A DNA stretch of 64,000 nt, taken from IMG/VR virus record IMGVR_UViG_3300029841_000003; one strand, 5' to 3'. This document shows positions 10,320 to 63,376 of the stretch, one piece after another. The first letter of the stretch is position 1; the number at the start of each line of letters is the position of its first letter. Origin of the DNA: a virus (Duplodnaviria; Heunggongvirae; Uroviricota; Caudoviricetes). The translations under genes and the position numbers were made by a program. The notes under the pieces were generated by a model that did no database searches, was not told the origin of the DNA, and saw nothing but the letters and a program-made list of their open reading frames with translations.

Positions 10320-10955
10320 ATGAGATATGTTTTAGAAAGTGAAAAATATCCTGGAAATTATTTGGTGTTTAAACATGGAAGTCCTCCTCATGTGGTGGAT
10401 TTAAAATCTGCTCAGAAGTTTGACAATGTACCGAAAGCTTTAAACAGGATATCAACAATTCCTAAAAATTTAAGCATATACGCCCCTTGGAAAGTAACAT
10501 CAGTTGATGAGAGAGTTGGTTTTGTACAGCAGAATAAATCTCTTGTAGAGATTGGTGATTATAAAAAGAAAATAGATGACAGCATATTGCCTATTAAAGA
10601 AATATTAGGTAATAGAAAACCTTTAGAAAAACAGCTAAAGGAACTGGAGCTTATATCTCAGGATCTTGATCACTATATAGAATTTAATAAACTGAATGTT
10701 ACTTCTGGATATTGGGCCTATAAAATAAAAAAAGCAATTAGAGAGAAACGAAGAAGTATAAAAGAAGATCTATATTATATAGATTATCTTCAGACAGCTT
10801 CATTACCTCAAATTGTAAACGGGGAAGGGAGGCCTAATTTAGATAATCAAAAATATCGAATTAGATCAGATATTGGACAAGAGTTTTTTAATCAGAAGTA
10901 CATATCTAAAGAAATAGCAGAGAAGATTTGCAAAGAAATAGAGGAGATTACATAA
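10320..10955 (+). CDS. hypothetical protein
   Basis: 211-aa ORF, first gene downstream of the consensus promoter, with a strong RBS GGAAGAGGAAAA. Confidence 0.4.
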   Translation: MRYVLESEKYPGNYLVFKHGSPPHVVDLKSAQKFDNVPKALNRISTIPKNLSIYAPWKVTSVDERVGFVQQNKSLVEIGDYKKKIDDSILPIKEILGNRKPLEKQLKELELISQDLDHYIEFNKLNVTSGYWAYKIKKAIREKRRSIKEDLYYIDYLQTASLPQIVNGEGRPNLDNQKYRIRSDIGQEFFNQKYISKEIAEKICKEIEEIT

Positions 10956-10957
10956 TG

Positions 10958-11860
10958 AATGAATTAATTATGCTGGTAGGTTTACCTGCTTCCGGTAAAA
11001 GTACATGGGCTAAAGAGTATTCAGAAACTCATCCTGATTATATAGTGCACTCTTCTGATAAACTCAGAGAAGAAATGTATGGAGATAATTATGATGACGC
11101 AGACAACAGTAAAGTATTTGAAGAACTGCATCGTAGAATACTGGAAGATTTGAAAATGCATTCGGTTATTTATGATGCTACTAATTTGGTAAAGAAAAGA
11201 AGAGTGCATTTTTTAAAAGGAGTTCCTAAACATGTTTATAAAACATGTATTATGTTTTTGAAAACGTATGAAAAATGTTTAAAGGATAACTCAAAAAGGG
11301 AAAATTCAGTTCCAGACGAAGTGATTACAAGAATGAGGAAAGTATTTTCTCCACCAATGTACCATGAAGGGTTCAATGAAATTAGAGTTGTACAAGATGA
11401 TCATAAAGATATAAAAGAATTAATAGATATGGCTCGTGACTTCGATCAAGAGAATCCACATCATTCTCTTACTCTTTATGAACATCTGAAAAAGGTTTCA
11501 GAAGGAGTACCTAGAGAAGAAAAAAATTTATGGGTGGCGGCCTGTCTCCATGATATTGGAAAGCTTTTCACTAAATCAAGAATTAATGGAAAAGGTGAAG
11601 AGGATGATTACTGTCACTATTATCAACATCATTGTGTTGGAGCTTATGAATGTTTAACATGTTTTGATTTTTCCGGTGCACTTACAGGAAAAGATATATA
11701 TGATGCTTTTTATACAGCAAATTTGATTTATTATCATATGCATCCCTATTTATCATGGTCGCAATCAAACAAGGCAAAGAATAAAGATAAGTATTTAATT
11801 GGAAAACAGATGTTTTCAGATGTGATGTTATTACATGAAGCAGATGTTAAAGGGCATTGA
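10958..11860 (+). CDS. polynucleotide kinase-like P-loop kinase fused to an HD phosphohydrolase domain (Pnkp-like RNA/DNA end-healing enzyme)
   Basis: Walker A LVGLPASGKSTWAKEY at the N-terminus, as in T4 Pnk. The C-terminal half has HD-domain residues (HSLTLYEHL ... ACLHDIGK ... HH). The start was chosen at MNELIM, because the ORF-track start at 10928 overlaps the upstream gene. Confidence 0.55.
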   Translation, partial: NELIMLVGLPASGKSTWAKEYSETHPDYIVHSSDKLREEMYGDNYDDADNSKVFEELHRRILEDLKMHSVIYDATNLVKKRRVHFLKGVPKHVYKTCIMFLKTYEKCLKDNSKRENSVPDEVITRMRKVFSPPMYHEGFNEIRVVQDDHKDIKELIDMARDFDQENPHHSLTLYEHLKKVSEGVPREEKNLWVAACLHDIGKLFTKSRINGKGEEDDYCHYYQHHCVGAYECLTCFDFSGALTGKDIYDAFYTANLIYYHMHPYLSWSQSNKAKNKDKYLIGKQMFSDVMLLHEADVKGH

Positions 11861-15861: not shown

Positions 15862-16437
15862 TTGGAGGTAATGCTTGTGGGAAATAAAAAGAAAGTTCTG
15901 ATTGTAGTTGATGTGCAGAATGATTTTGTAACTGGCTCACTAGGTACGCCGGAAGCTCAAGCTATTGTACCTAAAATTAAAGAAAAGTTTGAAGAATATA
16001 AAAATAATGGGGATTATGTAGTGTATACAATGGATACACATAATTCAGATTATTTGAATACTTCTGAGGGTAAAAAACTTCCTGTTGAACATTGTATATA
16101 TCGAACTTCAGGGTGGGAGGTTATAGATGAAATTCATCCTGTAAAAAATAATTATAACAATTTTATGGTATGTAAAAAGTCAACTTTTGGTTATGAAGGC
16201 TGGGATTGGGAAGAAATATTTGGGACAGACAGTGATATAGACAATTTAAACATTGAAATCATAGGTGTGTGTACAGACATCTGCGTTATCACAAATGCTC
16301 TTCTTATCAAAACTTATTATCCGGAGGCAGAGATCACAGTAGATGCGTCATGTTGCGCTGGAACTACACCGGAGAAGCATAAAGCAGCTTTAGAGGTGAT
16401 GAAAAGTTGTCAGATTAATGTGATAGGAGAGAAATAA
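15862..16437 (+). CDS. pncA: nicotinamidase / isochorismatase-family hydrolase (PncA-like)
   Basis: The N-terminus VLIVVDVQNDFVTGSLG carries the isochorismatase-family Asp. The conserved catalytic Cys context IIGVCTDICV is present. Confidence 0.7.
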   Translation: MEVMLVGNKKKVLIVVDVQNDFVTGSLGTPEAQAIVPKIKEKFEEYKNNGDYVVYTMDTHNSDYLNTSEGKKLPVEHCIYRTSGWEVIDEIHPVKNNYNNFMVCKKSTFGYEGWDWEEIFGTDSDIDNLNIEIIGVCTDICVITNALLIKTYYPEAEITVDASCCAGTTPEKHKAALEVMKSCQINVIGEK

Positions 16438-16953: not shown

Positions 16954-17757
16954 ATGATTAAATTAAACGGTGTAGAAATCAAACTTGATAAATATCCGGA
17001 TGGAACATTCTTATTTAAGGATATTCCTCCTATTGGAGGATGGTGCAGAGATAATATTGAATGGTTCTTTGAATCAATGGAAGAGTTAACAGCAGTTGAA
17101 TATATTACTAGATATTGTTGGGACCATAGAGTAGTGCCTAATTTATATATGCCTTATATCCCAGATGCACGTATGGACCGAGTTAAGCATGAGAACGAAT
17201 TATTTACTTTAAAATATTTTGCTCAGACTATTAATTCATTACATTTTGGAAAAGTAGAAGTTTTAGATCCACATTCTGATGTATCTGCTGCATTATTTAA
17301 TAAAGTACATGTAGGATCCCCGAATCGAATGATTGAGGATACTGTCAAGAAGATTGCTAGTGATAATCTTATGATGTTTTATCCGGATGCAGGATCTATG
17401 AAAAGATATTCTTCAGCAGTACATCTTCCATATGCTTTCGGTATTAAGAATAGAGATTGGGAGACCGGAGAAATTAAAGGTTTAGATTTATCAGGTGAAA
17501 TTGATCAATTACCAGGTAAAGACATTCTTATTGTAGATGACATTTGCAGCAGAGGTGGTACTTTTTATTATAGTGCTAAAAAGCTGAAAGAGGCCGGTGT
17601 AGGTAAGATTTATCTTTATATTACTCATTGTGAGAATACTATTTATGAAGGAGAACTTCTGAAAAACAATGGACTGATAGAGAAGATTTATACGACAGAT
17701 ACGATTTTGACAAATCTGGAAAGTCCTAAGATTGAATTGGTTGAGAGATTTAGATGA
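16954..17757 (+). CDS. prs: ribose-phosphate pyrophosphokinase (PRPP synthetase)
   Basis: Shows Prs hallmarks: YPDGTF (FsDGE-like), MPYIPDARMDR (PYfgYaRqDr), VEVLDPHS (DlHa), FYPDAGSMKR and the PRPP-binding loop DILIVDDICSRGGTF. Confidence 0.85.
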   Translation: MIKLNGVEIKLDKYPDGTFLFKDIPPIGGWCRDNIEWFFESMEELTAVEYITRYCWDHRVVPNLYMPYIPDARMDRVKHENELFTLKYFAQTINSLHFGKVEVLDPHSDVSAALFNKVHVGSPNRMIEDTVKKIASDNLMMFYPDAGSMKRYSSAVHLPYAFGIKNRDWETGEIKGLDLSGEIDQLPGKDILIVDDICSRGGTFYYSAKKLKEAGVGKIYLYITHCENTIYEGELLKNNGLIEKIYTTDTILTNLESPKIELVERFR

Positions 17758-17809: not shown

Positions 17810-18097
17810 ATGAGTAAATCAGTATTAGTGATTGATACGCCAGAGAAATGTATACGTTGTCCGCTATTAAACGATGCAGATGAATGCACAGTACAAGATG
17901 CTAATGCAAATTTCAATGCTGGTGATTCGTGGGATGAGTTAATGAAAGGATGTCCTTTGAATCCATTGCCGGATAAAATGAAATTAACAGGAGTGTACGG
18001 AAGAGAGTATTTTCAAAGCAATGGAAAAATGCCTAGCTACAAGATTGGTTGGAATGATTGTTTGAGAGAAATTACAGGAGAAGATAATAATGAGTAA
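17810..18097 (+). CDS. small CxxC zinc-ribbon-like protein (paralog of the next gene)
   Basis: MSKSVLVIDTPEKCIRCPLL is similar to the N-terminus of 18090-18458 (MSKVMLSIEEPNSCDECPF). Confidence 0.35.
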   Translation: MSKSVLVIDTPEKCIRCPLLNDADECTVQDANANFNAGDSWDELMKGCPLNPLPDKMKLTGVYGREYFQSNGKMPSYKIGWNDCLREITGEDNNE

Positions 18098-18458
18098 AGT
18101 TATGTTATCTATAGAAGAACCTAATTCATGTGACGAATGCCCATTTTCAGAATTAGAAACGTATGGATATTATTGCCAATTATTAAATAAATACATTAAT
18201 TCCTTAAAAAGGAAAGAACATTCAACGATTCCTAAATTATGTCCATTAAGAGAATTACCAGATTACCGTACAGAAACATACAAATGGGAAGATAGACTTC
18301 TAAGCTTACAAGACGTGATTGAATCAATGGCTTATGAAATTGCTACATATAGACACTCTAATAGATATTCTCATATAGAAGATGTGGATGATATTTTAAG
18401 AGAATATGAAGTTGATAAAATTATAAAGGAGATGAGAAAGTATGGAACCAATTATTAG
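18090..18458 (+). CDS. small CxxC zinc-ribbon-like protein (paralog)
   Basis: Shares its N-terminal motif with the previous ORF. Confidence 0.35.
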   Translation: MSKVMLSIEEPNSCDECPFSELETYGYYCQLLNKYINSLKRKEHSTIPKLCPLRELPDYRTETYKWEDRLLSLQDVIESMAYEIATYRHSNRYSHIEDVDDILREYEVDKIIKEMRKYGTNY

Positions 18459-18783
18459 TCCTTGGTTGATTTATTTTGCAAGTAGAGCAGATGCAGTGGG
18501 GACTTTATTTCTGATTGTTGCAGTAGCTGCATTTGCAATATGTTTGATAGGATTTGATGATTTAACAAAGAATGGATTCAAGTTATTTATTTCAATTGGG
18601 ATTATTTCTGTAATTTTAACAGTTCTTACACCAACTACCGAAACCGTTTATACAATGATGGTTGCAAATGAACTAACATCGGACAATGTTCAAGCAATTG
18701 GGAAAACCGGCAAGGATGTTATTGATTACATTACTGATCAGATTGATAAAGTTGTAAACGACAAAGAGGAGAATAAAAAATAA
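18442..18783 (+). CDS. small membrane protein (2 predicted TM helices)
   Basis: Hydrophobic stretches LFLIVAVAAFAICLIGF and LFISIGIISVILTVL. Confidence 0.35.
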   Translation: MEPIISPWLIYFASRADAVGTLFLIVAVAAFAICLIGFDDLTKNGFKLFISIGIISVILTVLTPTTETVYTMMVANELTSDNVQAIGKTGKDVIDYITDQIDKVVNDKEENKK

Positions 18784-20255
18784 TGAATACAATGGCAATT
18801 TTACTCTCAGACACATATAAACAGATACATAATAAAATCTATCCAAAAGGACTGACGAAATTAGTATCTTACTGGACCCCACGAAGATCAATGCTTAAGA
18901 ATCAGAACAAAATGGTATTCTTTGGTCTACAGGCATTTATTGAAGAGTATCTGGTCGATTATTTTAATAAAAACTTTTTTGAATTAACAGCAGCAGAAGT
19001 TGAGCATACATATAAATACAGTATGGATATACAGTTAGGAAATAGTTATGACCTAAAGCCTATTATGAAACTTCATAAATTAGGTTATCTTCCAATTCAG
19101 ATACGTGCTATCCCGGAGGGAACATTAGTACCAATGGGCATCCCATGCATCGAAATTACAAACACACATCCAGATTTTGCTTGGGTAGTACAGTGGATCG
19201 AATGTATCCTGCAGGTTGAACTCTGGAAACCATGTGCTCATGCAACAATTGGTCATATGTATAGAGAACTTGCAAATGACTACTATAAAATGACCTGTGA
19301 TGACTTTTTAAGACCTGAAATGGCATGCTCAGATTTTGGTATGAGAGGAATGTCTTGTATGGAAGAGGCAGTAAGATGTTCATCTGCTTGGTTATTATCA
19401 TTTGATAAGACAAGCACAATTCCAGCCATTGATTATATAGATACGTATTATGATGCTTGCTGCTGGACTGAAAAGATTGGAATTGGGGCTGTATCAACAG
19501 AGCATAGCTGCATGGCTTCAAACTTTGCAGTAGACGGTGATGAAATCACATTTGTAAAAAGACTACTTACAGAACTATATCCTAATGCATCTTTTAGTAT
19601 GGTATCTGATACATATGATTACTGGAACATGATTGATAATATCCTTCCGGCTTGTAAAAAAGAAATCATGCAGCATAATGGTAAACTTCTGGTTCGCCCA
19701 GATTCCGGAGATATGGTAGAAATTGCTGTAGAGACAATTGAAAAGCTTTGGAATACATTTGGCGGAACAGTAAATAACAAGGGATATAAAGTGCTTGACC
19801 CGCACATTGGAATTATCTATGGGGACGGATGTACTCTCAACAATGTAGAACAGGTATGGGAAGAACTTAAAGAAAAAGGATTTGCTGCAAACAATATTGT
19901 ATTCGGAGTCGGAGCATTTTGCTTCTCAGCAGTTATAGAACCCGATGGACATATAGTTGTTGTAACTAGGGATATGTTTGGTATTGCTATGAAAGCTACA
20001 TATGGAATTGTTAATGGCGAGCCAATTATGATTTATAAAGATCCAAAAACCGACACGAGTCATTTGAAAAAGTCTCATAAAGGGTGTTGTTGTATATATC
20101 ACGATGACAATGGAGAGTTGCAATGCATGGATGGATTTAATGATGTATTTCGTGACGGAGTATTAAGAACTGTATTTAAAGACGGTGAAATGTATCATAA
20201 AGAAACATTTGAAGACATTAGAGAAAGACTAAACGGAAGAAACAAAGATGAGTAA
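18783..20255 (+). CDS. nadV: nicotinamide phosphoribosyltransferase (NAMPT/NadV)
   Basis: 490 aa, aligned by eye along the full length of NAMPT: ILLSDTYK, AIPEGTLVP, DFGMRGMSCMEEA, VSDTYDYWN, LVRPDSGD, GYKVLDPHIGIIYGDG and VFGVGAF. Confidence 0.85.
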   Translation: MNTMAILLSDTYKQIHNKIYPKGLTKLVSYWTPRRSMLKNQNKMVFFGLQAFIEEYLVDYFNKNFFELTAAEVEHTYKYSMDIQLGNSYDLKPIMKLHKLGYLPIQIRAIPEGTLVPMGIPCIEITNTHPDFAWVVQWIECILQVELWKPCAHATIGHMYRELANDYYKMTCDDFLRPEMACSDFGMRGMSCMEEAVRCSSAWLLSFDKTSTIPAIDYIDTYYDACCWTEKIGIGAVSTEHSCMASNFAVDGDEITFVKRLLTELYPNASFSMVSDTYDYWNMIDNILPACKKEIMQHNGKLLVRPDSGDMVEIAVETIEKLWNTFGGTVNNKGYKVLDPHIGIIYGDGCTLNNVEQVWEELKEKGFAANNIVFGVGAFCFSAVIEPDGHIVVVTRDMFGIAMKATYGIVNGEPIMIYKDPKTDTSHLKKSHKGCCCIYHDDNGELQCMDGFNDVFRDGVLRTVFKDGEMYHKETFEDIRERLNGRNKDE

Positions 20256-20721
20256 AATTACAGATTATTTATTAAAAGATGATGTGATTGTAGTAATGGA
20301 TGTAGATGGAGTACTTGCTCCGTATGAGTTTTCTGAATTAAGTCATAGTATGACTGACGATGAATGGGACAGACTTGTAGCTTCCGGTGAGAATCCGTAT
20401 AAAGATGTGCGTCCGATCAAATTAATACAGGAGTTTATTCAGAAGAAAGGCGTGAATAAAGTATATACCTGTTCAAAGAGTCCTTTAAATGAAATTCCTG
20501 GTAAAAGAGCTTTTATAAAAGACAATTATGATCTGCCAGATGATAATATCTATTTCACTTTAGAAAAGACAGAAAAACTTACTGTGCTTCAAACGCTGCA
20601 ACAAAAGCTCGGACTTAAGCCATCTCAGATTGCAATTGTAGAAGATACAGTTAAAACTTTGGATTATATTCGTGCACATAGCGATTTTGTAACTGTACAT
20701 GTTTCATCATTTATGGAGTAG
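20248..20721 (+). CDS. HAD-superfamily hydrolase (phosphatase/nucleotidase-like)
   Basis: HAD motif I VVMDVDGVLA near the N-terminus. Confidence 0.45.
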   Translation: MSKITDYLLKDDVIVVMDVDGVLAPYEFSELSHSMTDDEWDRLVASGENPYKDVRPIKLIQEFIQKKGVNKVYTCSKSPLNEIPGKRAFIKDNYDLPDDNIYFTLEKTEKLTVLQTLQQKLGLKPSQIAIVEDTVKTLDYIRAHSDFVTVHVSSFME

Positions 20722-21142
20722 ATATAGGGAGGTATTAAAAATGAGTTATTTTACTGATTCAGTTTCAGATCTTTGTCAGGGGATTATTGATAAAGTAGAT
20801 ACTTATGAAAAACGAATCAAATACTTAGAAGAAGAAAACAAAAAGTTCAAAGATGAGCATTATAAAGACTCTGAAATGCAGAGAATGAAAACAGAGTTGG
20901 AAAAAGCAAAAGATGATTTACATAGAGGATTTCCAATTTCTAAAGAAGAAGAGGAGAAAATCAAAGAGTGGCAGTTAAAACATGACGCTGAGAAACATGG
21001 TTTGAAAACTATGGAACAGAGATTGAGAGCTGGCGGATGTTGTGGCGGGAGATATACATATCAATTTGTTCCCACAAGCATTGGAACTATTGGAGAAGTG
21101 ATTTGCTCCTGTGGCGAGAAGTTTACATTTCAGGATTTATAG
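20699..21142 (+). CDS. hypothetical coiled-coil protein with C-terminal Cys cluster
   Basis: 147-aa ORF with C-terminal GGCCGG...CSCGEKF. Confidence 0.3.
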   Translation: MFHHLWSRYREVLKMSYFTDSVSDLCQGIIDKVDTYEKRIKYLEEENKKFKDEHYKDSEMQRMKTELEKAKDDLHRGFPISKEEEEKIKEWQLKHDAEKHGLKTMEQRLRAGGCCGGRYTYQFVPTSIGTIGEVICSCGEKFTFQDL

Positions 21143-21152
21143 GAAAAGATTT

Positions 21153-21653
21153 ATGATTAAAATTATTGAAGGTAACATTGTAGATGCACAGACCGATTAT
21201 ATAATTCATCAAGTTAATTGCCAAGGAGAAATGAATACTGGAGTCGCTAAAGCATTAAGAGATTATGACGAAGGTATTTATATACATTATAGAAACGTCT
21301 GTAAATTACGTGAGTTTAATCCAGAATTACTTCTTGGAACATATGACGAGTACTTTATCAGAAGGAAAAATCAAGAGATATTGTCCTTATTTGCACAAGA
21401 CAAGTATGGATATGATGGAAAACAGTATACTGATGTTAAAGCTTTTCGAGAAGGATTAAATTTTATTCGACAACAAATACCTGTTTATTGGTTTGATGCT
21501 GATAACAGACCTCACAAGACAACCATTGCACTCCCATATAAAATAGGCTGCGGAAGAGGAGGAGCAGACTGGGAAGTGGTTTATAAGATTATAGAAGAAG
21601 AATTAAGTAGTTTTGAAGTAGAATTGTGGAAATTGGAGGAGCAGAATGTTTAA
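21153..21653 (+). CDS. macro-domain-like protein (ADP-ribose binding/processing)
   Basis: The N-terminus MIKIIEGNIVDAQTDYIIHQVNCQGEMNTGVAKALRD parallels the macro-domain pattern (GDIT...DAIVNAAN..GGGGVDGAIHRAAG). The start was chosen at the internal ATG, because the track start at 21111 overlaps the previous gene. Confidence 0.45.
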   Translation: MIKIIEGNIVDAQTDYIIHQVNCQGEMNTGVAKALRDYDEGIYIHYRNVCKLREFNPELLLGTYDEYFIRRKNQEILSLFAQDKYGYDGKQYTDVKAFREGLNFIRQQIPVYWFDADNRPHKTTIALPYKIGCGRGGADWEVVYKIIEEELSSFEVELWKLEEQNV

Positions 21654-22791
21654 TGTAGAAAAAGCAACAAATGATTGTATTCAGTGGATTAGAGATTGGA
21701 GAGAAGAGAATGGTCCTGGATGTAATCTCATAGTAGGTATTTCCGGTGGCGTTGACTCTTTAGTAGCTGCTAAGCTATGTGTGGAAGCCGTTGGAGCTGA
21801 CAAAGTTCTCGGAGTAATCATGCCGAACTATAAACAGGATGATATTGATGTGGCTTATGATATTTGCCAGCATGTATTAAACATTGATTATCTTACTATT
21901 AATATTGGATCAGCTTATGATGATATTATTGATCAAATTGATGCTGCATTTAATGTAACAGATCAGACATTAATTAATCTCGCTCCTAGACTAAGAATGA
22001 CCACTCTATACGGGGTGTCACAGTCACACAATGGAAGAGTGGTTAATACATGTAATCTTTCTGAGGATTACATCGGATACTCCACTAGATATGGTGACGC
22101 AGCAGGGGACTTTTCACCGTTGGCTCAGTTCACAAAGAGTGAAGTAAAAAGAATCGGTTATTATTTAGGACTACCTAAAAAATATATAGAGAAAACACCA
22201 TCAGATGGGTTATGCGGTAAATCAGATGAAGATAGCTTCGGATTTACCTATGCAGTATTAGATAGATATATTCGTACAGGTATTTGCGATGATCCGGAAA
22301 TTAAAAGACGGATTGATCGTTTACATACAAAAAATAAGTTTAAACTGAAACCAATGCAGTATTTTAATTATAAAGAGGAGAAAACAGATATGAATATGTC
22401 ACCAGATGAGATTTTAAAAGCACTTGAAAAAGCAGTAGCGAAAAAAGAAAAAGAGCATACTATTGGAGAAGAGCTTAGAAGCTGTGAGCGTCAGATTAAA
22501 GATGCTTTAGGCATTGATGTATATATTGTACCTAAAAATAAAACTGATAAACAGGTTTGTAAAACACTTTCGAAAGATGATATCACATTTGTAGGAAGAA
22601 CAAAAGATATTGCTACAGGAAAAATTAGAACTACTGTAGGGTTCAAAGATGGAACACAGACTTCTGTAGTCTTAAATGATTGGGAAGACGAAGATGATAC
22701 TGAAAAAGCCATTATGTGGTGTTTGCTTAAGAAGTGTTTCAAATCAAAAAGAAGCTTAGAAAAAGTAATTTATTCAATGGAGGACATGTAA
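21646..22791 (+). CDS. nadE: NH3-dependent NAD+ synthetase (NadE) with ~130-aa C-terminal extension
   Basis: PP-loop SGGxDS (GISGGVDSLVAAKLC) plus NadE-type downstream blocks (RMTTLYGV, GDFSPLA). Residues ~250-381 form an extra domain of unknown function. Confidence 0.8.
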   Translation: MFNVEKATNDCIQWIRDWREENGPGCNLIVGISGGVDSLVAAKLCVEAVGADKVLGVIMPNYKQDDIDVAYDICQHVLNIDYLTINIGSAYDDIIDQIDAAFNVTDQTLINLAPRLRMTTLYGVSQSHNGRVVNTCNLSEDYIGYSTRYGDAAGDFSPLAQFTKSEVKRIGYYLGLPKKYIEKTPSDGLCGKSDEDSFGFTYAVLDRYIRTGICDDPEIKRRIDRLHTKNKFKLKPMQYFNYKEEKTDMNMSPDEILKALEKAVAKKEKEHTIGEELRSCERQIKDALGIDVYIVPKNKTDKQVCKTLSKDDITFVGRTKDIATGKIRTTVGFKDGTQTSVVLNDWEDEDDTEKAIMWCLLKKCFKSKRSLEKVIYSMEDM

Positions 22792-23781: not shown

Positions 23782-24300
23782 ATGAAAATAAAAGCAAAGC
23801 AAATAATTGTAGATGGGAGCACATCTTATAAATATTATAAACCTAAATTCTGTTGCAAAGCATTGGAAGAGAATCCTAGGATAGTTATTTCTAATGAATA
23901 TCCTGATAACTACTTATGTAGAACTTGTGAAACTATAGAATGCCATGGTTGTGACTATAAAACTGATGAAACTTTTGGAATTTTCTTTTACATAAGCGAA
24001 GAAGTCCAAGACTGGGAAGATACATGGCCTGAAGACTATTATTACCCTCTTAAATTCTGTCCATTTTGCGGAGAACCAATTGAAGTTGATGTCATAGAAA
24101 CCATTGATAAAACAGAAGAAGCAGAAAAGGTATCTGAGGTTGCAACGAAGCTACGAAAACAGTTATGGACATGTGATAGCAAGAAAAAGTGTGCAGAGTT
24201 AGAAAAAGAGATAAGGAACTTAGACGATATAGTAAATTATTATTATTCAACAGGAGAAATTGATGAAAATAGAGAAAATCAAAAAATTGTTGAAAAGTGA
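23782..24300 (+). CDS. Cys-rich zinc-finger-like protein
   Basis: 172 aa with CC..C, CRTCETIECHGC and CPFCGEP motifs. Confidence 0.35.
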   Translation: MKIKAKQIIVDGSTSYKYYKPKFCCKALEENPRIVISNEYPDNYLCRTCETIECHGCDYKTDETFGIFFYISEEVQDWEDTWPEDYYYPLKFCPFCGEPIEVDVIETIDKTEEAEKVSEVATKLRKQLWTCDSKKKCAELEKEIRNLDDIVNYYYSTGEIDENRENQKIVEK

Positions 24301-25294
24301 ACACTATGATTTCTTAAGAGCGAACGAGCACCTGGGGAGTAACATAATTCTATTAGGCTTAGGTGGGTCTCATGCTTATGGTACAGATACAGAAAACTCC
24401 GATCTGGATATTAGGGGTTGTGCTTTAAATAAAAGAGAAGAAATCCTGATTCCTACACATAATTTTGATCAGGTAACGGAAGAAACAACAGATACAACAA
24501 TCTATTCTTTTAATAAATTGATAACTCTATTGTCAAACTGCAACCCAAACACAATTGAGCTGATAGGATTGAAGCCAGAACATTATCTTTATATTCATCC
24601 AATTGGTCAAGAACTTCTTGATAATGCTGAAATGTTTTTATCTAAGAAAGCGATCTATTCTTTTGGAGGCTATGCTACAAGCCAGCTAAGAAGGCTCGAT
24701 AATAAATCTGCCAGGAAATTGGGACAAGAAGAAAGAATGCAGCATGTTCTTAATAGTATTATGAATGCTTTTTATACTTTCCCTGAAAAGTATTTCAATT
24801 TTCCAGAAGATGCAATAAAGCTTTATGTAGATAAAGGTATTCAGGAAGATTATGAAACAGAAGTATTTATGGATATCCAGTTGAAGCATTACCCTTTGAA
24901 TGATTATCAGGGGATGTGGGCCGAAATGAAAAACATTGTTAGGGATTATTCCAAAATTGGGAAGAGAAATAAGCATGCCATAGAACATAATAAGTTAGGA
25001 AAGCATATGTGCCATTTAGTGAGATTGTATCTTATGTGTTTTGATATTCTTGAAAAAGGCAAAATTATTACATATAGAGAAGATGATCATGAGCTTCTTA
25101 TGGCTCTACGTAATGGAGAATATTTGGATGCAAACAGTCAGCCTATCCCAGAATTTTTTGAAATGGTAAACGAGTTAGAGAAAAGACTTGAGTATGATTC
25201 AAAGAATACCTCATTGCCTGATAAACCAAATTATAAAGCTATAGAAGAATTTGTAATGTCTGTCAATGAAAGAATTGTATTAGGAGAGATTTAA
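24260..25294 (+). CDS. Pol-beta-superfamily nucleotidyltransferase (minimal NTase fold, PF10127-like)
   Basis: NTase signature GLGGSHAYGTDTENSDLDIRG (GS...D.D). 344 aa. The substrate is unknown. Confidence 0.5.
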   Translation: MMKIEKIKKLLKSEHYDFLRANEHLGSNIILLGLGGSHAYGTDTENSDLDIRGCALNKREEILIPTHNFDQVTEETTDTTIYSFNKLITLLSNCNPNTIELIGLKPEHYLYIHPIGQELLDNAEMFLSKKAIYSFGGYATSQLRRLDNKSARKLGQEERMQHVLNSIMNAFYTFPEKYFNFPEDAIKLYVDKGIQEDYETEVFMDIQLKHYPLNDYQGMWAEMKNIVRDYSKIGKRNKHAIEHNKLGKHMCHLVRLYLMCFDILEKGKIITYREDDHELLMALRNGEYLDANSQPIPEFFEMVNELEKRLEYDSKNTSLPDKPNYKAIEEFVMSVNERIVLGEI

Positions 25295-25296
25295 GA

Positions 25297-27918
25297 ATGA
25301 ATTTTAATGGATTAAAAAGTAGCGAAGTAGAGGTTAGTAGGACTACATATGGAAGTAATAAGCTTCCGGAACCTGAATTGAAAAAATGGTATCATTTTGC
25401 TAAGGAAGCATTAACTGAACCAATTACTATGATTCTAATAATAATTGCTTTGTTTCAGTTGGTTTTAGGCGCTATGGGAGTAATGTCTCTTTCTGAACCT
25501 GTAATGATTATAGTGGTTTTAGCTATTGTTACTGGAATTGCTATTAAGACAGGTCTAGGCGTACAGAAATCTGCAGCAGAGCTAAGAGCAAAAACGGCAG
25601 TTAGATATTGTGATGTTGTCCGAGATGGAAACGTACAGACAATTAATAAAGATGATCTGGTAGTAGGTGATTTAGTTCTATTGAGAACTGGACAAGAGAT
25701 TTTTGCAGATGGATTTATTGTTGATGGAGAAATTTCTGTTAATAACGCCGCTATCAATGGAGAGACAAAAGAATGTAGAAAAATTCCTAGTGCTAATTAT
25801 AAGCATGTTAAAACAACATCAACTACTGCATATACGGATCAGTGTTCTCTCTTTGCAGGAACAGTTATCATGTCTGGTGAAGGAAAAATGATTGTTACAG
25901 ATGTTGGTGTTAATACAGTTAATGGTGATACTCTTGTCAAAATGCAGACTTTAGAGCCTCCTAAGACAGCTCTTGATATTGCTCTGGATCATTTGTGTGA
26001 TTTTATTTCAAAATGGGGAACAATTGCGGCAGCATTAGCATTTGTAATTATGACAATTACAGGTATCTTAAATGCTGGAAGCTTAAGTCAGTATTTCTTA
26101 GGAAGTATTCTTGAAAGTATTCAGAAGGTAGCACAGAATGTCTCAAATGCATTGACAATTATTGTTGCGGCTGTACCGGAAGGTCTGCCACTCATTGTAA
26201 AACTTGTAACTAAACAGAATGTATCGACAATGGAAAAATTCAATATTCTTGCGAAGAATACTGGTAAAATTCCTGAATTGGCGTATGTTAATTTAATTTG
26301 TACGGATAAGACAGGAACTCTCACAACAGGTGAAATGACCTCTACAGTTATGATTAACGGTAACTGTCAGGATATTTTTAATAAGGAAAGTTCGCTCAAC
26401 GAGCTAATTGATTTAAACATTTGCATGAACAATAGCGCAGTGTTTGACTCTAATGGAAACATCACTGGTGGTAATTCGATTGATCGAGCAGTGCTTGATA
26501 TGCTTTCTCCTGAAGATGCACAAAAAATACAGAATAAAGCTATCATAAAGAAACGTGTTCCATTTAGTAGTGAAAATAAATTCTCTGCAATTACTTTAAG
26601 TAATGGAGCAAATGATTTTACTGTTTATAAGGGTGCACCAGAAAAACTGATTGAGAAATGCAAAACTTATCTCGATAATGATGGCAATGTAACTGAGCTA
26701 ACAGAAGAAAAACGAAAAGCTTTGAAAAGTCATATTAAGGGATTAACAGAGAAAGCAATGAGGTGTATTGCATTGACTATCTCAGATAAAGCTGATGATG
26801 GTCTCCCTGATGAAATGAATTTCCTTGGAGTCATTGGAGTTGTTGACCCGGTTAGGAATGAAGTTCCAGAAGCAGTAAAAATTGCTCATAAAGCTGGAAT
26901 TCAGGTAATTGAAATTACTGGTGATTGCATGGAGACGGCTAAGGCTGTTGCTATGGAAGCTGGCATTTATAAGCCTGGAGACTTAGCAGTTACTAATGAT
27001 GAGTTTGAGGCAATGTCAGATGTAAAAGTAAAAGAAATTATTCCACAGTTAAGAGTAATTTCCAGATGCTCACCGAATACGAAACTTCGTCTTGTAACAT
27101 TAGCGCAAGAAATTGGAATGTCTGTAGCAATGACAGGTGATGGTGTGAACGATGCTCCTGCATTAAAGAAAGCAGATGTAGGCTTTGGAATGCAAGACGG
27201 ATCTGATGTAGCAAAAGAAGCAGCAGACATTGTTTTGACGGACAATAATTTTGCAAGTGTAGTAAAAGCAGTCGAACTTGGTAGAACATTTATGCATAAC
27301 ATTATGATGTTCCTTGAATTCCAGCTGCCTATCAATATTTCGTTGTTGATCTTAAGTATGGTATTTCCAATTATTTCTGGTGGCTCTGCTCTATTAGCAG
27401 CAGTTCAGATCCTTATTGTAAATATCATCATGGATTCACTTAACTCATTAAGCTTTGGTGGAGAACCGCCAAAAGAAGAATATATGAATGAAGAGCCTAT
27501 CATGAAAGGATCCGGATTATTTATCCGTGGAGCGAAAGGGAGAATTGCATTAAGTTCAATTGTATTTATTGCTTTATTTGGTGTAATTACATTTGGTCCA
27601 GTTGGGAATATGTTTACAACAAAACTTTCGGCTATGACAGCGAGATTCGCTTTATTGTGTTTAATGGCAGTATTTAATGGATTCACTATTAGAACAGATA
27701 GTATGAATCTTTTCAAAGGAATTAAAAATAATAAATTATTTGTGTATATCGCATTAGGTATTTTTGCAATGACTGTAGTTTTGTGTAATTTTGTAGGAAA
27801 TTTAGTACAGACAACTCCAATGGATGTTAAACAGTGGATTGTAGTCTTAGTGACAGCTTTTATGATTGTGCCTGTAGATTGGATTAGGAAAGCAATTTGT
27901 AAGAAAGGAAGTAAATAA
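25297..27918 (+). CDS. P-type cation-transporting ATPase
   Basis: 873 aa with the phosphorylation motif ICTDKTGTLT, a TGD motif (ITGDCMETA), the hinge MTGDGVNDAPALKKADVGFGM and multiple TM segments at both ends. Confidence 0.85.
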   Translation: MNFNGLKSSEVEVSRTTYGSNKLPEPELKKWYHFAKEALTEPITMILIIIALFQLVLGAMGVMSLSEPVMIIVVLAIVTGIAIKTGLGVQKSAAELRAKTAVRYCDVVRDGNVQTINKDDLVVGDLVLLRTGQEIFADGFIVDGEISVNNAAINGETKECRKIPSANYKHVKTTSTTAYTDQCSLFAGTVIMSGEGKMIVTDVGVNTVNGDTLVKMQTLEPPKTALDIALDHLCDFISKWGTIAAALAFVIMTITGILNAGSLSQYFLGSILESIQKVAQNVSNALTIIVAAVPEGLPLIVKLVTKQNVSTMEKFNILAKNTGKIPELAYVNLICTDKTGTLTTGEMTSTVMINGNCQDIFNKESSLNELIDLNICMNNSAVFDSNGNITGGNSIDRAVLDMLSPEDAQKIQNKAIIKKRVPFSSENKFSAITLSNGANDFTVYKGAPEKLIEKCKTYLDNDGNVTELTEEKRKALKSHIKGLTEKAMRCIALTISDKADDGLPDEMNFLGVIGVVDPVRNEVPEAVKIAHKAGIQVIEITGDCMETAKAVAMEAGIYKPGDLAVTNDEFEAMSDVKVKEIIPQLRVISRCSPNTKLRLVTLAQEIGMSVAMTGDGVNDAPALKKADVGFGMQDGSDVAKEAADIVLTDNNFASVVKAVELGRTFMHNIMMFLEFQLPINISLLILSMVFPIISGGSALLAAVQILIVNIIMDSLNSLSFGGEPPKEEYMNEEPIMKGSGLFIRGAKGRIALSSIVFIALFGVITFGPVGNMFTTKLSAMTARFALLCLMAVFNGFTIRTDSMNLFKGIKNNKLFVYIALGIFAMTVVLCNFVGNLVQTTPMDVKQWIVVLVTAFMIVPVDWIRKAICKKGSK

Positions 27919-27919
27919 A

Positions 27920-28687
27920 ATGGGATTTTTTGATAAGTTATTTGGGAAAAAAGATGAGGAAGCAGCAGTAGAGTTATCTTCTGCTGTAACTCAGCAACCT
28001 GTATATGAAGAAAAGTTACAGACAATTGATATGTCTAAGCACAGTGAAAATCTTGGCAAAGTACTTATTGATATGTCTAAGGGAAGCAAGATTGATATGA
28101 CAAAACATACAGCTAGAGTAGCTCTTGCAATGGATTATTCAGGAAGTATGGATTGGCTGTATGATAATGGATCTGTACAGGAAACCATTTCTCGTTTGTT
28201 GCCTATTGCTCTAAGATTTGACGATAATGGAGAACTTGAGAGTTGGTTGTTCTCAAATGGAGCGGAGCGCTTAAAAGCTGCTAACGCTGATAATTATAGT
28301 AGTTATGTTAAAAATGTTATGAAAAAAGCTCATATGTATATGGGTGGTACTAATTATGCTCCTGTATTGAAAGAAATGGTTACATATTATAAAGATATTG
28401 AGCCAAGTGAGATTCCAGCATTTATCATCTTTATTACAGATGGTGAGAACAGTGACACTTCTGCCACCAATGCAGTTATTAAAGAGCTTTCAGAGTACAA
28501 CATCTTTGTACAGTTCATAGGAATTGGGGATGAAGATTTTGGTTATTTAAAATCCCTTGACAATATGAAAGGTAGAAAACATGATAACACCGGTTTTACA
28601 GCAGTAAAAGACATGAATAAAATGTCTGATGAACAGTTATATACAGAGATTCTTCGTCAGTATAAAGACTGGCTGAATAATAAATAA
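27920..28687 (+). CDS. von Willebrand factor A (vWA) domain protein, TerY-like
   Basis: MIDAS motif DYSGSM, then GGTNYAP and IFITDG, which are typical vWA blocks. Confidence 0.6.
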   Translation: MGFFDKLFGKKDEEAAVELSSAVTQQPVYEEKLQTIDMSKHSENLGKVLIDMSKGSKIDMTKHTARVALAMDYSGSMDWLYDNGSVQETISRLLPIALRFDDNGELESWLFSNGAERLKAANADNYSSYVKNVMKKAHMYMGGTNYAPVLKEMVTYYKDIEPSEIPAFIIFITDGENSDTSATNAVIKELSEYNIFVQFIGIGDEDFGYLKSLDNMKGRKHDNTGFTAVKDMNKMSDEQLYTEILRQYKDWLNNK

Positions 28688-28704
28688 AAAGGAGATAAAG
28701 AGAT

Positions 28705-29343
28705 ATGGCAGTAATCAACATGAGCAAAAATCAGAAAATTAGTATGGTAAAAGAGGATGGTACAGGTATTAAGAACTTCTTCATTGGAGTCAATTGGGAT
28801 CAGAACCGTTATGCTGGTGAAGCAGATATTGACTTTGATATCAATGGATTTTTAACAGATTCAAGTCGCAAAGTAGTATACCCAGAAGATTTAGTAAACT
28901 ATAAAACCTATGAAGATGGGTCTGCATATCCTTGGGTAGATTATTCAGGAGACAATAAAACTGGTGATGATTCTCAGGGAATGATTTTTAATGGAAAGCA
29001 TTATGACGAATATTTTATTGTACATGCTGACACATTCCCGAAAGATAAAACAGAATTTACTATCTGCTTAACAATTTTTAGGGCATTACAGCGTATGCAG
29101 AACTTTGGAATGGTCTCCAATGCAGTTATGACAATTTGTGATTACGACAATCCAGATGGTGATAAGTATGAATATGATCTGTCTGAGAATGAGAACTTTG
29201 AAAAATTGAATGCAGTAGAAATGGGTAAATTATACCGTTACGGAGATGGATTCAAATTCCAGGCATTAGGTTCCGGTTATGTGGGAGGTATGACAGAACT
29301 GTTTAAAAACTTTGGGCTTGATATTGATGAGGGGAGAGACTAA
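28705..29343 (+). CDS. terD: TerD-domain protein (tellurium-resistance/stress TerD family)
   Basis: Blocks align by eye to TerD: ISMVK, GVNWD, SGDNKTGDDSQG, FGMVSNAVMTI, GKLYRYGDGFKFQALGSGYVGGMTELFKNFG. Confidence 0.8.
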   Translation: MAVINMSKNQKISMVKEDGTGIKNFFIGVNWDQNRYAGEADIDFDINGFLTDSSRKVVYPEDLVNYKTYEDGSAYPWVDYSGDNKTGDDSQGMIFNGKHYDEYFIVHADTFPKDKTEFTICLTIFRALQRMQNFGMVSNAVMTICDYDNPDGDKYEYDLSENENFEKLNAVEMGKLYRYGDGFKFQALGSGYVGGMTELFKNFGLDIDEGRD

Positions 29344-30089
29344 TGAACTTATTTGAAATTGTGGTCCTAATAGCTGTAGTAATTAGTATTGTGTTATTTA
29401 TTGCACGTACAACTCAAATTGGTAAGAGAGTGTCACTTAGAGTTGCTGGTACAGCAGACGAAGCAATTCAAAAAGATGCAGCCACCCCTGAGGGAGCTAA
29501 AGCTTATTATAACGCTGCTATTGAAAAGAAAGAAGATGAACTTCAGCAGGAAAATGTAAGATATCAACAGATGCTTGGTAAGATTTCCAATTATGAAGAT
29601 GACCTGTTCCATTTGAAGAAAGATGCCATGAAAGCAGATGTAAATGTAAATGCTTGTGTGGATCGAGGAGATGACGAAGCAGCAAAAGTCTACTTAAAAG
29701 AACAACAGGAGCTGAATGATAAGATTGATTTTATTAAGAGTACATTAAAAGAATGGAAAGAGAATGCTGACGTACAGAAAGAAAAAGTAGAAGTATTACA
29801 GCAACAGCTTAATGATTTAAAAGCAGAAAAAGAAAGTGCTGTTTTAACTTTGGAAACAGCTCAGGCATCAAAAGCTTTTAATGTAACACCGGGAGTATCT
29901 TCTAGTGAAGAGGAAAAGATGCTAGAGAAAGTACGTGACGGAGTTAAAAAGCAAAAAGAGGCTGCTGATGGAGCTAGGATCGTTTATGAAAGTTCTACTA
30001 TTGTGCAAAAACAGCGTCTGGATAAGAAAATGAAAGATGATGAAATTAATAAAAAGTTGCAGGAACTGAAAACAAAGAAAGGCAAATAA
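29343..30089 (+). CDS. PspA/IM30-like coiled-coil protein with N-terminal TM helix
   Basis: N-terminal hydrophobic segment followed by a long coiled coil. Stretches such as DRGDDEAAKVYLKEQQEL resemble PspA (KDREDLARAALIEKQKL). Confidence 0.4.
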   Translation: MNLFEIVVLIAVVISIVLFIARTTQIGKRVSLRVAGTADEAIQKDAATPEGAKAYYNAAIEKKEDELQQENVRYQQMLGKISNYEDDLFHLKKDAMKADVNVNACVDRGDDEAAKVYLKEQQELNDKIDFIKSTLKEWKENADVQKEKVEVLQQQLNDLKAEKESAVLTLETAQASKAFNVTPGVSSSEEEKMLEKVRDGVKKQKEAADGARIVYESSTIVQKQRLDKKMKDDEINKKLQELKTKKGK

Positions 30090-30322
30090 AATGATAGTGT
30101 TAAATATAGGCGTGTTTGTAGTATGCTTATTAACCTGTTTCTTAGTTGGATTCTTTGTAGGGAAGAGAAAATAAGTGTAGTAACAAAAGGTTAAGGTGGG
30201 GTTCAATTCCTCACCTACACTTAAGGAGGTTAAACAATGAAATAAAATATGGAGGTGATATTACGCAAAGAGGAAAACGAATATTAAATAAACCAATTGA
30301 TGACGCATGTGAAAAGGAAATT

Positions 30323-30505
30323 TTGGCACCAACAAAAAGAGTGATCACTGTAGAAGCTGAATACGACTTGACTGATCCTAAATTAATTGGAGCAAAAATA
30401 ACTGACAGAGATATAGTAGAAGAATTGGTAAAAGATGAGTTTATTACATCTTTTGAGCAAAATGATGGATTTGTAAGTTTGACAGTAACTTGTAGTGATT
30501 ATTAG
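30323..30505 (+). CDS. hypothetical small protein
   Basis: 60-aa ORF. Confidence 0.25.
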   Translation: MAPTKRVITVEAEYDLTDPKLIGAKITDRDIVEELVKDEFITSFEQNDGFVSLTVTCSDY

Positions 30506-30516
30506 GAAGGAGAAAA

Positions 30517-30939
30517 ATGATTAATAGTTTTACTGGAGATTATTACTTTTTAAGTAACTTTTATATGGCCCCGGTAAGTTATAACGGATGGGACTATACA
30601 AATAATGAAGCAGCTTTTCAAGCACAGAAAACAAAAAATCGTAGACTAAAATTTCAGTTATTCTCTCAAGCTAGCCCATCAGAAGCAAAGGCAGCAGGTA
30701 GAAAGATTGATTTGAGATCAGATTGGGAAGAAGTGAAAGATAAAGTAATGTATGAAATCGTACTGGCTAAATTCACTCAGAATCCAGACCTTAAGGAAAA
30801 ATTACTTGCTACAGGAGATGAATATTTGGAAGAGGGTAATACTTGGGGAGATACTATTTGGGGAACTGTAGATGGAGTTGGAGAAAATAGGCTTGGGAAG
30901 ATACTTATGAGAGTGAGAGATGAATTAAATGAAACTTAA
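30517..30939 (+). CDS. NADAR (YbiA/DUF1768) domain protein
   Basis: FTGDYYFLSNFY...AFQAQK...W..VK..VMYEIVLAKFTQNPDLKEKLLATGDEYLEEGNTWGDTIWG matches the NADAR family pattern (F.G....LSNF...Eh.fqA.K...W......M...l.KF.q...l...Ll.Tg...L.E....D..WG). Confidence 0.65.
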   Translation: MINSFTGDYYFLSNFYMAPVSYNGWDYTNNEAAFQAQKTKNRRLKFQLFSQASPSEAKAAGRKIDLRSDWEEVKDKVMYEIVLAKFTQNPDLKEKLLATGDEYLEEGNTWGDTIWGTVDGVGENRLGKILMRVRDELNET

Positions 30940-31055
30940 CATATTTTTTATCATTCTTGATGCTATTTTTATAGCAGTATCATTGGTAGACCTTATTACT
31001 TATAAAAATTTATTTAGTTTAATGCTAGTAGCTTTTTTCGCTTGGACATTTGTAA

Positions 31056-31340
31056 TTGATATTAAAGAATATAAAGGAGACAAATAACATGGTAAAAACA
31101 TTAAAAGAAACAACAGAAATGATGGTTAGCCCAGATTATAAAGAAAGATTCAAAGCTGAATATTACCAGTTAATGCTTAGATTCAGAGGTTTACAGTCTA
31201 TGCTCTTTAAATGGGACAATGGAACTCTTAGTTTTGAACCAACATGCCCAAGAAGTACTTATAATATTCAGATTGATGCTATGGCAAGCTATTTAGCTAT
31301 CTTAGAAGCTAGGGCTGTTATGGAAGGTATTGAATTATAA
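31056..31340 (+). CDS. hypothetical protein
   Basis: 94-aa ORF. Confidence 0.3.
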   Translation: MILKNIKETNNMVKTLKETTEMMVSPDYKERFKAEYYQLMLRFRGLQSMLFKWDNGTLSFEPTCPRSTYNIQIDAMASYLAILEARAVMEGIEL

Positions 31341-31518
31341 AGGAGAGAGTATGAATCCAGTATTTGTATTTTTAATATTGGTTGGAGCTGTAGTTTTATG
31401 GTTCCTATTATCTGCATTGTTTTATCCATTCGGACGATTCTTGCATAGAATTTGGAAAGATGCAGTAGACGAAATAAACAGAGAAGAAAATAAAGAAAAA
31501 GATAAGGAGAATGAGTAA
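31330..31518 (+). CDS. small membrane protein
   Basis: 62 aa with a TM helix (VFVFLILVGAVVLWFLLSALFYPF). Confidence 0.3.
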   Translation: MNYKGESMNPVFVFLILVGAVVLWFLLSALFYPFGRFLHRIWKDAVDEINREENKEKDKENE

Positions 31519-60679: not shown

Positions 60680-60687
60680 TAAAAAAA

Positions 60688-60718
60688 TGGGAGCTATATC
60701 GAAATGATATAACTCCCT
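60688..60718. terminator. bidirectional hairpin terminator between xis and int
   Basis: GGGAGCTATATCgaaatGATATAACTCCC followed by TTATTTTT. Confidence 0.5.
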
Positions 60719-60723
60719 TATTT

Positions 60724-63361: not shown

Positions 63362-63376
63362 AATTGAATATGGAAC

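Follow-up and report, generated by a model that had tools for sequence, protein, structure and literature searches.

A probable ADP-ribose-1''-phosphate phosphatase of the macro-domain family in a phage NAD+ reconstitution operon

Introduction

What could a small, stand-alone macro-domain protein contribute to a phage gene cluster devoted to nicotinamide adenine dinucleotide (NAD+)? The question is raised by a gene at positions 21153-21653 of a 64,000-nucleotide stretch of the Caudoviricetes record IMGVR_UViG_3300029841_000003. The whole stretch is called the window here, and all positions refer to it. A first-pass annotation, made by a model from the letters alone, had described the gene as macro-domain-like, with NadV and NadE as neighbours. 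It had suggested that the product removes ADP-ribose (ADPR) signals generated by host defence, or reverses the ADP-ribosylation of DNA by DarT-like toxins. From the fold, the active site, the neighbours and the distribution of the gene, we consider it probable that the protein is a phosphatase of the Adpp type, acting on ADP-ribose-1''-phosphate (ADPR-1''-phosphate), feeding ADPR to the NAD+ reconstitution pathway NARP1 and countering the phosphorolysis of NAD+ by RES-type defence enzymes. The Adpp function was first described in a 2026 preprint, and the gene in the window is a new and divergent example of it, not a new idea.

In NARP1, Adps turns ADPR into ADP-ribose pyrophosphate (ADPR-PP), and Namat joins ADPR-PP with nicotinamide to give NAD+ (PMC12774641; PMC13586617). 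The enzyme aRES cleaves NAD+ with phosphate into nicotinamide and ADPR-1''-phosphate, and NARP1 cannot use the latter (Osterman et al., bioRxiv 10.64898/2026.01.28.702374, January 2026). According to the same preprint, 15% of the NARP1 operons of phages include a macro-domain gene. In Vibrio phage Gary its product, which was given the name Adpp, turns ADPR-1''-phosphate (ADPR-1P) into ADPR in vitro, with catalysis at an enzyme:substrate ratio of 1:100. It belongs to a three-gene operon, NARP1-AP, that overcomes aRES only when all three genes are intact (10.64898/2026.01.28.702374).

Reading frame and conservation of the gene

The open reading frame (ORF) is real, and is conserved far beyond chance. 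It runs from an ATG at 21153 to a TAA at 21651-21653, which agrees with the extent first assigned to it.

21153-21653, plus strand: macro-domain protein of the Adpp type (His19/Gln82), 166 amino acids (aa); probable ADP-ribose-1''-phosphate phosphatase, from ORF, fold, signature, tree and synteny

The stop codon of the upstream gene lies at 21140-21142, and a ribosome-binding site (AGGA, 21141-21144) stands 8 bases 5' of the ATG. The ORF list generated by a program runs the frame back to a GTG at 21111. We place the start at 21153 because the Met of MIKII is the first residue in 40 of 40 aligned homologues, none of which begins from the upstream GTG.

In terms of distribution, the protein has 624 homologous protein clusters in a large protein collection, with E-values down to 2e-108. 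The closest cluster is 99% identical and represents 641 member sequences. Matches were also found in 609 phage genome records.

Macro fold

The AlphaFold2 model of the protein has a mean predicted local distance difference test score (pLDDT) of 92.5 and a predicted template modelling score (pTM) of 0.88. Foldseek matched this model to solved macro domains with probability 1.00 and template modelling (TM) scores of 0.71-0.76, among them DarG (5M31), BT1257 (2FG1), Poa1p (6LFR) and TARG1 (4J5Q), with a total of 207 PDB matches at E <= 0.001. Searching the PDB by sequence gave DarG (5M31 and 5M3I), the Thermosipho DarTG 7OMU and BT1257, and a profile of the 40 homologues reached DarG at 7e-12, BT1257 at 1.5e-10, Poa1p at 2.6e-8 and TARG1 at 6e-6. 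The model and these matches allow a confident assignment of the predicted product, with the three-layer alpha/beta/alpha architecture and central mixed sheet of the superfamily, to the macro domains of the TARG1/DarG/Poa1p class, in line with the first-pass annotation.

The macro nucleotide-binding pattern that had been read in the N-terminal 40 residues is present as loop 1, with G7, N22, G25 and G30-V31-A32. The second glycine loop is P128-Y-K-I-G132-C-G134-R-G136-G137-x-x-W140. Both glycine-rich, ADPR-binding loops, the one following strand 2 and the other preceding the last helix, are invariant or nearly so among the 40 homologues and align to the loops of DarG and Poa1p. The Gly-rich loops and catalytic residues named in the first-pass annotation thus divide, with the loops present and the catalytic lysine of DarG replaced by Gln82.

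The Pfam search proposed at that time scored PF01661 (Macro) at 13.2 bits (E = 0.086), short of the cut-off of 22. We treat the sub-threshold score as a matter of sensitivity and not as evidence against the fold, because many homologues at 41-48% identity carry a precomputed PF01661 match.

Active-site signature and subclass

The fold alone cannot assign a subfamily, because DarG, BT1257, Poa1p and TARG1 rank within an approximately 35-fold range of Foldseek E-values. We therefore turned to the active-site columns. In a profile alignment with the DarG of Mycobacterium tuberculosis and Thermus aquaticus, the DarG stretch F-P-T-K80-K-H-W falls on L-F-A-Q82-D-K-Y of the window protein. Gln82 is invariant in 40 of 40 homologues and, by both profile and MAFFT alignment, shares its column with DarG K80 and TARG1 K84. 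K80 of DarG, which corresponds to K84 of TARG1, is its catalytic lysine, and the K80A change inactivates the enzyme (PMC5179494). AdfM, a phage macro protein directed against DarT2, retains the catalytic lysine as K78 (PMC13309987).

A second position of interest is His19, which is aligned with His23 in the strand-2 loop of Poa1p (cd02901) in the profile and MAFFT alignments. Poa1p mutants deposited in the PDB are H23A, S30A and F152A. N22, the residue that in DarG-type enzymes holds the ADP-ribosylated base in position, is invariant in the homologues. It does not discriminate between DarG-type and Adpp-type proteins, because it is also kept in Poa1p and in all Adpps.

The combination of His19 and Gln82 was derived as a signature in the present analysis, from a panel of 25 sequences aligned with MAFFT, and a neighbour-joining tree with bootstrap was built alongside it. 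The signature is shared by the window protein, five relatives, all nine NARP1-associated macro proteins of Table S1 of the preprint (Gary included), the Bacillus phage homologues, phiM12 and BT1257. Lys82 without His19 is found in DarG of T. aquaticus and M. tuberculosis, in AdfM of phages Goslar and Asesino, and in the macro protein of phage SU10, and this Lys-type group forms a separate clade with 99% bootstrap. With Vibrio phage RYC Adpp the window protein shares 30% identity (4e-24), and with Gary Adpp 26% (4e-9).

As for family models, the NCBIfam DarG equivalog NF048014 gave 49.5 bits against a cut-off of 250 (3.7e-13), covering the macro half of the model only, and the PADLOC DarG model matched at 6e-15. 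Neither was accepted as evidence of membership, since the score is far under the cut-off and the catalytic lysine is absent. Judged from these sequence features, the protein falls outside the glycohydrolases of the DarG/AdfM/TARG1 kind. The DarG/DarT reading of the first-pass annotation was accordingly given up, and a reversal of ADP-ribosylation is unlikely for a protein lacking the catalytic lysine, with the small molecule ADPR-1''-phosphate as the better-supported substrate.

The PHROG family phrog_335, labelled “phosphatase”, was matched by the protein at 1.5e-36. This match was dropped as evidence for function, since the T. aquaticus DarG macrodomain matches equally well (5.8e-41).

A separate observation concerns annotation. 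The family phrog_335 spans both Lys-type (DarG/AdfM-like) and His/Gln-type (Adpp-like) macro domains, which Lys or Gln at position 82 tells apart. Database names within this same macro family include “phosphatase”, “Appr-1-p processing”, “RNase III inhibitor”, “DNA repair protein” and “ADP-ribosyltransferase”. His19 with Gln82 on one side and Lys82 on the other offer a simple sequence rule for Adpp-like and DarG/AdfM-like proteins, which current annotation merges.

The NARP1 operon and its conservation

The macro gene is embedded in a cluster of NAD genes, as had been noted, with Adps, Namat and NadE as its neighbours:

15862-16437, plus strand: nicotinamidase (PncA-type hydrolase of the isochorismatase family), 191 aa; PF00857 at 5e-24
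16954-17757, plus strand: Adps (ADP-ribose diphosphokinase, similar to phosphoribosyl pyrophosphate (PRPP) synthetase), 267 aa; 42% identity to SPbetaL1 Adps
17810-18783, plus strand: three small ORFs of 95, 122 and 113 aa between Adps and Namat, the third a predicted membrane protein
18783-20255, plus strand: Namat-like nicotinamide ADP-ribose transferase, 490 aa; best PDB matches 9W5X and 9W5W
20248-20721, plus strand: small phosphatase-like protein of the HAD family, 157 aa, with a DVDGV motif; TIGR01509 at 1.6e-5, below the cut-off
20741-21142, plus strand: coiled-coil, Cys-rich protein, 133 aa from the ATG at 20741; variable between lineages
21646-22791, plus strand: NadE (NAD+ synthetase without a glutaminase domain, ammonia-type); PF02540 at 1.7e-48, TIGR00552 at 7e-48

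The identity of Adps was judged against the sequences of Table S4 of the preprint. The match to SPbetaL1 Adps runs over the full length (1e-56), and identity to Gary Adps is 39%. The gene stays under the NCBIfam cut-offs for true PRPP synthetases (88.6 bits against 113), and the best true PRPP synthetase in the PDB reaches only 54.7 bits. This PRPP-synthetase-like gene had been left unused in the first-pass annotation.

The gene then named NadV is closer to Namat. It matches the crystal structures of SPbetaL1 Namat (9W5X/9W5W) with 394 bits (5.5e-117), compared with 203 bits (about 1e-59) for human or bacterial Nampt, and is 29% identical to the NARP2 Nampt of phage KVP40. The call of NadE, on the other hand, was borne out by PF02540. 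The identities of Adps and Namat together make the cluster a NARP1 operon for NAD+ reconstitution.

Next, we examined how stable this arrangement is. A scan of IMG/VR yielded 80 related loci. Among them are 46 different macro sequences, at identities between 45% and 100%. Namat and Adps were counted in the loci with at least 4.5 kb upstream (n = 69) and NadE in those with at least 3 kb downstream (n = 64). Namat is present in 69 of 69 and Adps in 68 of 69, all on the strand of the macro gene, and NadE follows on the same strand in 64 of 64. The order Adps, Namat, macro, NadE persists even at a macro identity of 45%. The 29 most distant loci (45-46% identity) have a compact operon of nicotinamidase, Adps, Namat, macro and NadE, in which the macro gene starts from -4 to 9 nucleotides after Namat.

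The macro gene of the window comes third after Namat, and the two genes that separate them, HAD-like (20248-20721) and coiled-coil (20741-21142), are lineage-specific insertions. The former is found in 33 of the 69 viral loci and is absent from the compact operons, and its product has no PDB or PHROG match. The latter is confined to closer relatives, and its product has no significant family match and no PDB or PHROG match. The HAD-like protein could be a second phosphatase of the pathway. The three small ORFs between Adps and Namat gave no family matches, and the stretch is poorly conserved or replaced in relatives. The preprint authors define a NARP1-linked macro gene operationally as one within two genes of the Adps and Namat operon, and the macro gene studied here lies within or adjacent to that operon in the sense of this definition.

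A scan of bacteria, with one genome per GTDB species, gave another 80 loci. The module is present in 30 of them, with macro identity down to 34%, mostly in metagenome-assembled genomes of gut Clostridia and Bacteroidales, and all five module genes are found in 14 (macro identity 34-50%). One locus (L089) is from an isolate assembly, Ruminococcus sp. AM36-2AA, with the operon on a 499-kb contig (QTYB01000001.1, 292134-304625) and identities of 86% for Adps, 77% for Namat, 54% for the macro protein and 55% for NadE. This hints that relatives of the phage infect or reside in Ruminococcus and related Clostridia.

Lastly, a scan for promoters and terminators between 14 and 26 kb gave sites no more numerous than in shuffled sequence, so the operon boundaries were inferred from gene packing.

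Proposed function and alternatives

We combine the fold, the signature residues, the identities of Adps and Namat and the conserved synteny observed here with the reactions of aRES, Adpp, Adps and Namat known from the literature. In the resulting scheme, aRES, a RES-domain defence, would split NAD+ with phosphate into nicotinamide and ADPR-1''-phosphate, a product unusable by NARP1. The macro protein would hold the ADPR moiety in its two glycine-rich loops and hydrolyse the 1''-phosphate to leave plain ADPR. Adps (16954-17757) would then pyrophosphorylate ADPR to ADPR-PP, which Namat (18783-20255) would couple with nicotinamide to NAD+. The phosphatase activity of the window protein and an aRES-type defence in its hosts are what we infer from this. 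An ADPR derivative generated by host defence would thus be the target, as the first-pass annotation had supposed. It would not be a signal, given that ADPR-1''-phosphate is a breakdown product of NAD+ (10.64898/2026.01.28.702374).

Two observations make this scheme more plausible. Predicted aRES genes are listed for Ruminococcus flavefaciens, Butyrivibrio and Eubacterium (Table S2, 10.64898/2026.01.28.702374), members of the plausible host clade. Furthermore, the phage encodes a NAD-dependent DNA ligase of the LigA type with a BRCT domain (8141-10186, plus strand), and therefore has a direct, replication-linked need for NAD+.

Several points weigh against an Adpp function. The activity of the window protein is a predicted one, at 26% identity to the sole validated Adpp, and neither the fold nor the PHROG family separates Adpp-like from DarG-like proteins. 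S30 and F152 of Poa1p are not conserved. In the neighbour-joining tree, the clade of the window protein (99%) is sister to the homologues of Bacillus phages Kirov and FADO (80%), which are not NARP1-adjacent. It falls outside the Gary clade, and the deep branching order of the His/Gln-type proteins is unsupported (7-31%).

Distribution also counts on this side. The macro gene stands alone in 50 of the 80 bacterial loci, mainly on chromosomes of Paenibacillus and other Bacillota. Among annotated phages, the closest homologues, Kirov and FADO, are not linked to NARP1, and the copy of phiM12 lies 2.5 kb from NARP2, so the His/Gln-type family is wider than NARP1. The order here is Adps-Namat-macro, as opposed to Adps-macro-Namat in Gary. 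Details of the pathway may differ as well, given an insertion in the adenine clamp of Namat that is described below. Finally, the HAD-type phosphatase in the cluster could hold the phosphatase role in the lineage of the window, though it is absent from the compact operons.

Other readings were weighed on the same evidence. The conserved synteny supports a protein that feeds NARP1 without identifying its substrate, which might instead be 2'- or 3'-cyclic ADP-ribose (2'cADPR/3'cADPR) from Thoeris, O-acetyl-ADP-ribose or ADPR-2''-phosphate, or the protein might proofread ADPR-PP. Macro domains are versatile on 1''- and 2''-linked ADPR derivatives (PMC9503650), and the RyR-domain glycosidase RyDEP turns 2'/3'cADPR into ADPR within a NARP1 operon (PMC13232231). 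We regard another substrate as unlikely, for the sole tested His/Gln-type macro protein linked to NARP1 is an ADPR-1P phosphatase, as is Poa1p on ADPR-1''-phosphate, the closest characterised cellular relative with an equivalent of His19, and no family member has been shown to act on cADPR isomers. Some macro domains, such as macroH2A, bind their ligand only, and phage sponges for ADPR-derived signals are known, so the protein might also be a non-catalytic sponge or sensor for such signals, or hand ADPR over to Adps. That it does not catalyse at all is, to our mind, the most improbable of the options. The residues around the distal ribose that exceed the needs of binding (H19, N22, Q82 and the YGYDG..YT loop) do not vary even between widely diverged homologues, and the homologous Gary protein turns over its substrate.

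An antitoxin mimic of the DarG/AdfM kind, clearing ADPR from phage DNA modified by DarT2, would account for the DarG macrodomains 5M31 and 5M3I among the best PDB matches, for the PADLOC and NCBIfam hits and for the conserved Asn22, and phage macro proteins with this activity exist (AdfM, PMC13309987). The invariant Gln82 in the place of catalytic Lys80, the low NCBIfam score and the separate, well-supported clade make it very improbable. In addition, the conserved neighbours are enzymes of NAD salvage and not DarT or DNA-metabolism genes, the Pfam sweep of the larger ORFs of the window found no DarT gene, and the phage has a separate NADAR gene at 30517-30939.

The same phosphatase chemistry could also serve another source of ADPR-1''-phosphate, namely RNA repair of the kind known from the yeast Poa1p pathway, where Tpt1/KptA moves a 2'-phosphate to NAD+. 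The window does contain an RNA ligase (36352-37650, PF09414), a polynucleotide kinase (PNK)-like AAA_33 kinase-HD protein (10928-11860) and an RlaP nucleotidyltransferase (24260-25294, PF10127), all on the plus strand. A homologue of RlaP sits between Namat and the macro gene in three loci (L049, L050 and L089); in a fourth, L151, it immediately precedes a macro gene that stands alone. This origin is nonetheless improbable, as the Pfam sweep of the larger ORFs, over the 64 kb of genome covered, found neither Tpt1/KptA nor a 2H phosphoesterase, and the invariant neighbours are Namat, Adps and NadE instead of RNA-repair genes. Repair by PNK and Rnl of the T4 type leaves no 2'-phosphate.

The NADAR gene is of interest in its own right. 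It encodes a stand-alone NADAR-domain protein (plus strand, PF08719 at 1.3e-29), so that the phage carries both a macro and a NADAR gene. Like the macro domain, NADAR processes ADPR, and phages employ it against DarT1 in the form of an orphan antitoxin (PMC11825919).

An Adpp function, if correct, would extend NARP1-AP from phages of Vibrio, Pseudomonas and Acinetobacter to large phages, as yet uncultured, of Clostridia from human and animal guts. It would also suggest that defence by RES-type phosphorolysis of NAD+ matters in the gut microbiome.

A larger five-gene module

The single macro gene is of moderate interest, and it is the surrounding five-gene module that deserves follow-up. This module is larger than the published NARP1-AP. 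The best PDB match of the nicotinamidase (15862-16437) is the Pyrococcus horikoshii enzyme 1ILW (2e-16), and the alignment retains all the conserved Asp, Lys, Cys and Asp/His/His positions, of which we take D10, K94 and C133 to be catalytic and D52, H54 and H71 to bind zinc. It lies directly upstream of Adps in 42 of 69 viral loci and in at least 17 bacterial genomic loci. A nicotinamidase beside Namat, a consumer of nicotinamide, is unexpected.

At the other end of the module, NadE has a C-terminal extension, about 135 aa long and without any family match, that more distant relatives lack. NadE is rare in phages, being present in only 37 of 50,697 phage records. The stop of the macro gene overlaps the start of NadE by 8 nucleotides (ATGTTTAA, 21646-21653), with GGAGGAG just 5', an arrangement typical of translational coupling. 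Should the module include a deamidated branch of NAD+ synthesis, as tentatively proposed below, this overlap would suggest that the macro step is stoichiometrically tied to it. In one of the 37 phage records with NadE, that of the human-gut phage phAss-1, genes for nicotinamidase, an Adps-like protein, a Namat-like protein, a 139-aa unknown and NadE are consecutive.

Namat itself departs from the described enzymes. A conserved insertion of 9-10 aa, 10 aa in the protein of the window, lies within its adenine-clamp (SCH) motif (GAFCFS[AVIEPDGHIV]VVTRD, near residues 375-400), and interrupts the published SCH signature GSxPhixPhixPhiTRD. Where Namat and Nampt have HDF, the Namat of the module has [SA]DFGMRG. 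Distant members of the module have both features, which the proteins of SPbetaL1, Gary and phAss-1 lack, and a changed substrate specificity is possible. The Asp of the DFG motif is retained in the Namat of the module and, by comparison with D219 of Nampt, nicotinamide can be argued to be still the substrate.

NAD+ reconstitution in phages may have a further branch, possibly a new one, to which the nicotinamidase, NadE and the Namat variant point. We found no paper linking NARP1 with NadE or nicotinamidase, nor one describing the combination of PncA, Adps, Namat variant, macro protein and NadE. Our proposal, which is tentative and may well turn out wrong, is that these five genes work as one unit in gut phages and form a new variant of NAD+ reconstitution, with NARP1-AP coupled to the deamidated branch. 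In such a branch, nicotinamide would be converted to nicotinate, and nicotinate adenine dinucleotide amidated to NAD+. The variant Namat may accept nicotinate directly, with the deamido dinucleotide as its product. Alternatively, the phage may provide or boost two steps of Preiss-Handler salvage by the host, the first and the last.

Other features of the window

Downstream of the operon, stress and membrane genes form a block over 25297-32489 on the plus strand, an unusual feature in a phage. The block contains an 873-aa P-type cation ATPase, a TerF-like vWA protein, TerD, a PspA/IM30-like protein and an SPFH/Band 7 protein.

Two recombinase genes lie near the left end on the plus strand (4624-5631 and 6877-7788), encoding a phage integrase and a protein whose N-terminal domain is of the MrpR type, and a third integrase-family match was found among the right-hand ORFs (60000-64000). 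The coding strand switches at approximately 60.7 kb, and over the last 2 kb there is a rise in the GC fraction, from about 0.33 to 0.44. The switch and the rise may mark a genome end or an insertion boundary.

Comparison with known systems

TARG1/C6orf130 (4J5Q), the terminal ADP-ribose glycohydrolase of humans, belongs to the same macro subclass (Foldseek E = 2e-9), at 17-18% identity, and its catalytic Lys84 is absent from the window protein. DarG (5M31, 5M3I), compared together with AdfM of the PhiKZ gp104 family, is among the best PDB matches in fold and sequence and shares Asn22 and both glycine loops. The window protein differs in having Gln for the catalytic Lys80, in lacking the His-to-Asn change at position 19 and the DarT-binding domain, in belonging to a separate clade and in scoring far below the NCBIfam DarG cut-off.

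BT1257 of Bacteroides thetaiotaomicron (2FG1, 2AFC) is of the His/Gln type and clusters with the NARP1-associated Adpps with 100% bootstrap. It is a cellular protein, and adds no functional information because its function is uncharacterised.

Poa1p of Saccharomyces cerevisiae (6LFQ/6LFR) is again of the same macro subclass (Foldseek E = 6.5e-10, TM 0.74), with His23 in the position of His19, and it has the chemistry proposed here. At 19% identity, it differs by a Ser or a gap at Gln82, by a long insertion before the second loop and by S30 and F152, which are not shared. Its biological role is in tRNA splicing and not in phage counter-defence.

Finally, Gary Adpp (KNV71_gp137) differs from the window protein in subclade, at 26% identity, and in its place between Adps and Namat, where the window macro gene follows Namat. 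The window operon adds nicotinamidase and NadE and has a Namat with an insertion, and the phosphatase activity of its macro protein is putative. Both are stand-alone macro proteins of approximately 160 aa, encoded in a same-strand operon with Adps and Namat. They share the loop H-Q-x-N-C...G-[VI]-A, Gln at the position of DarG K80 and the loop P-x-I-G-C-G-x-x-G-G-x-W.

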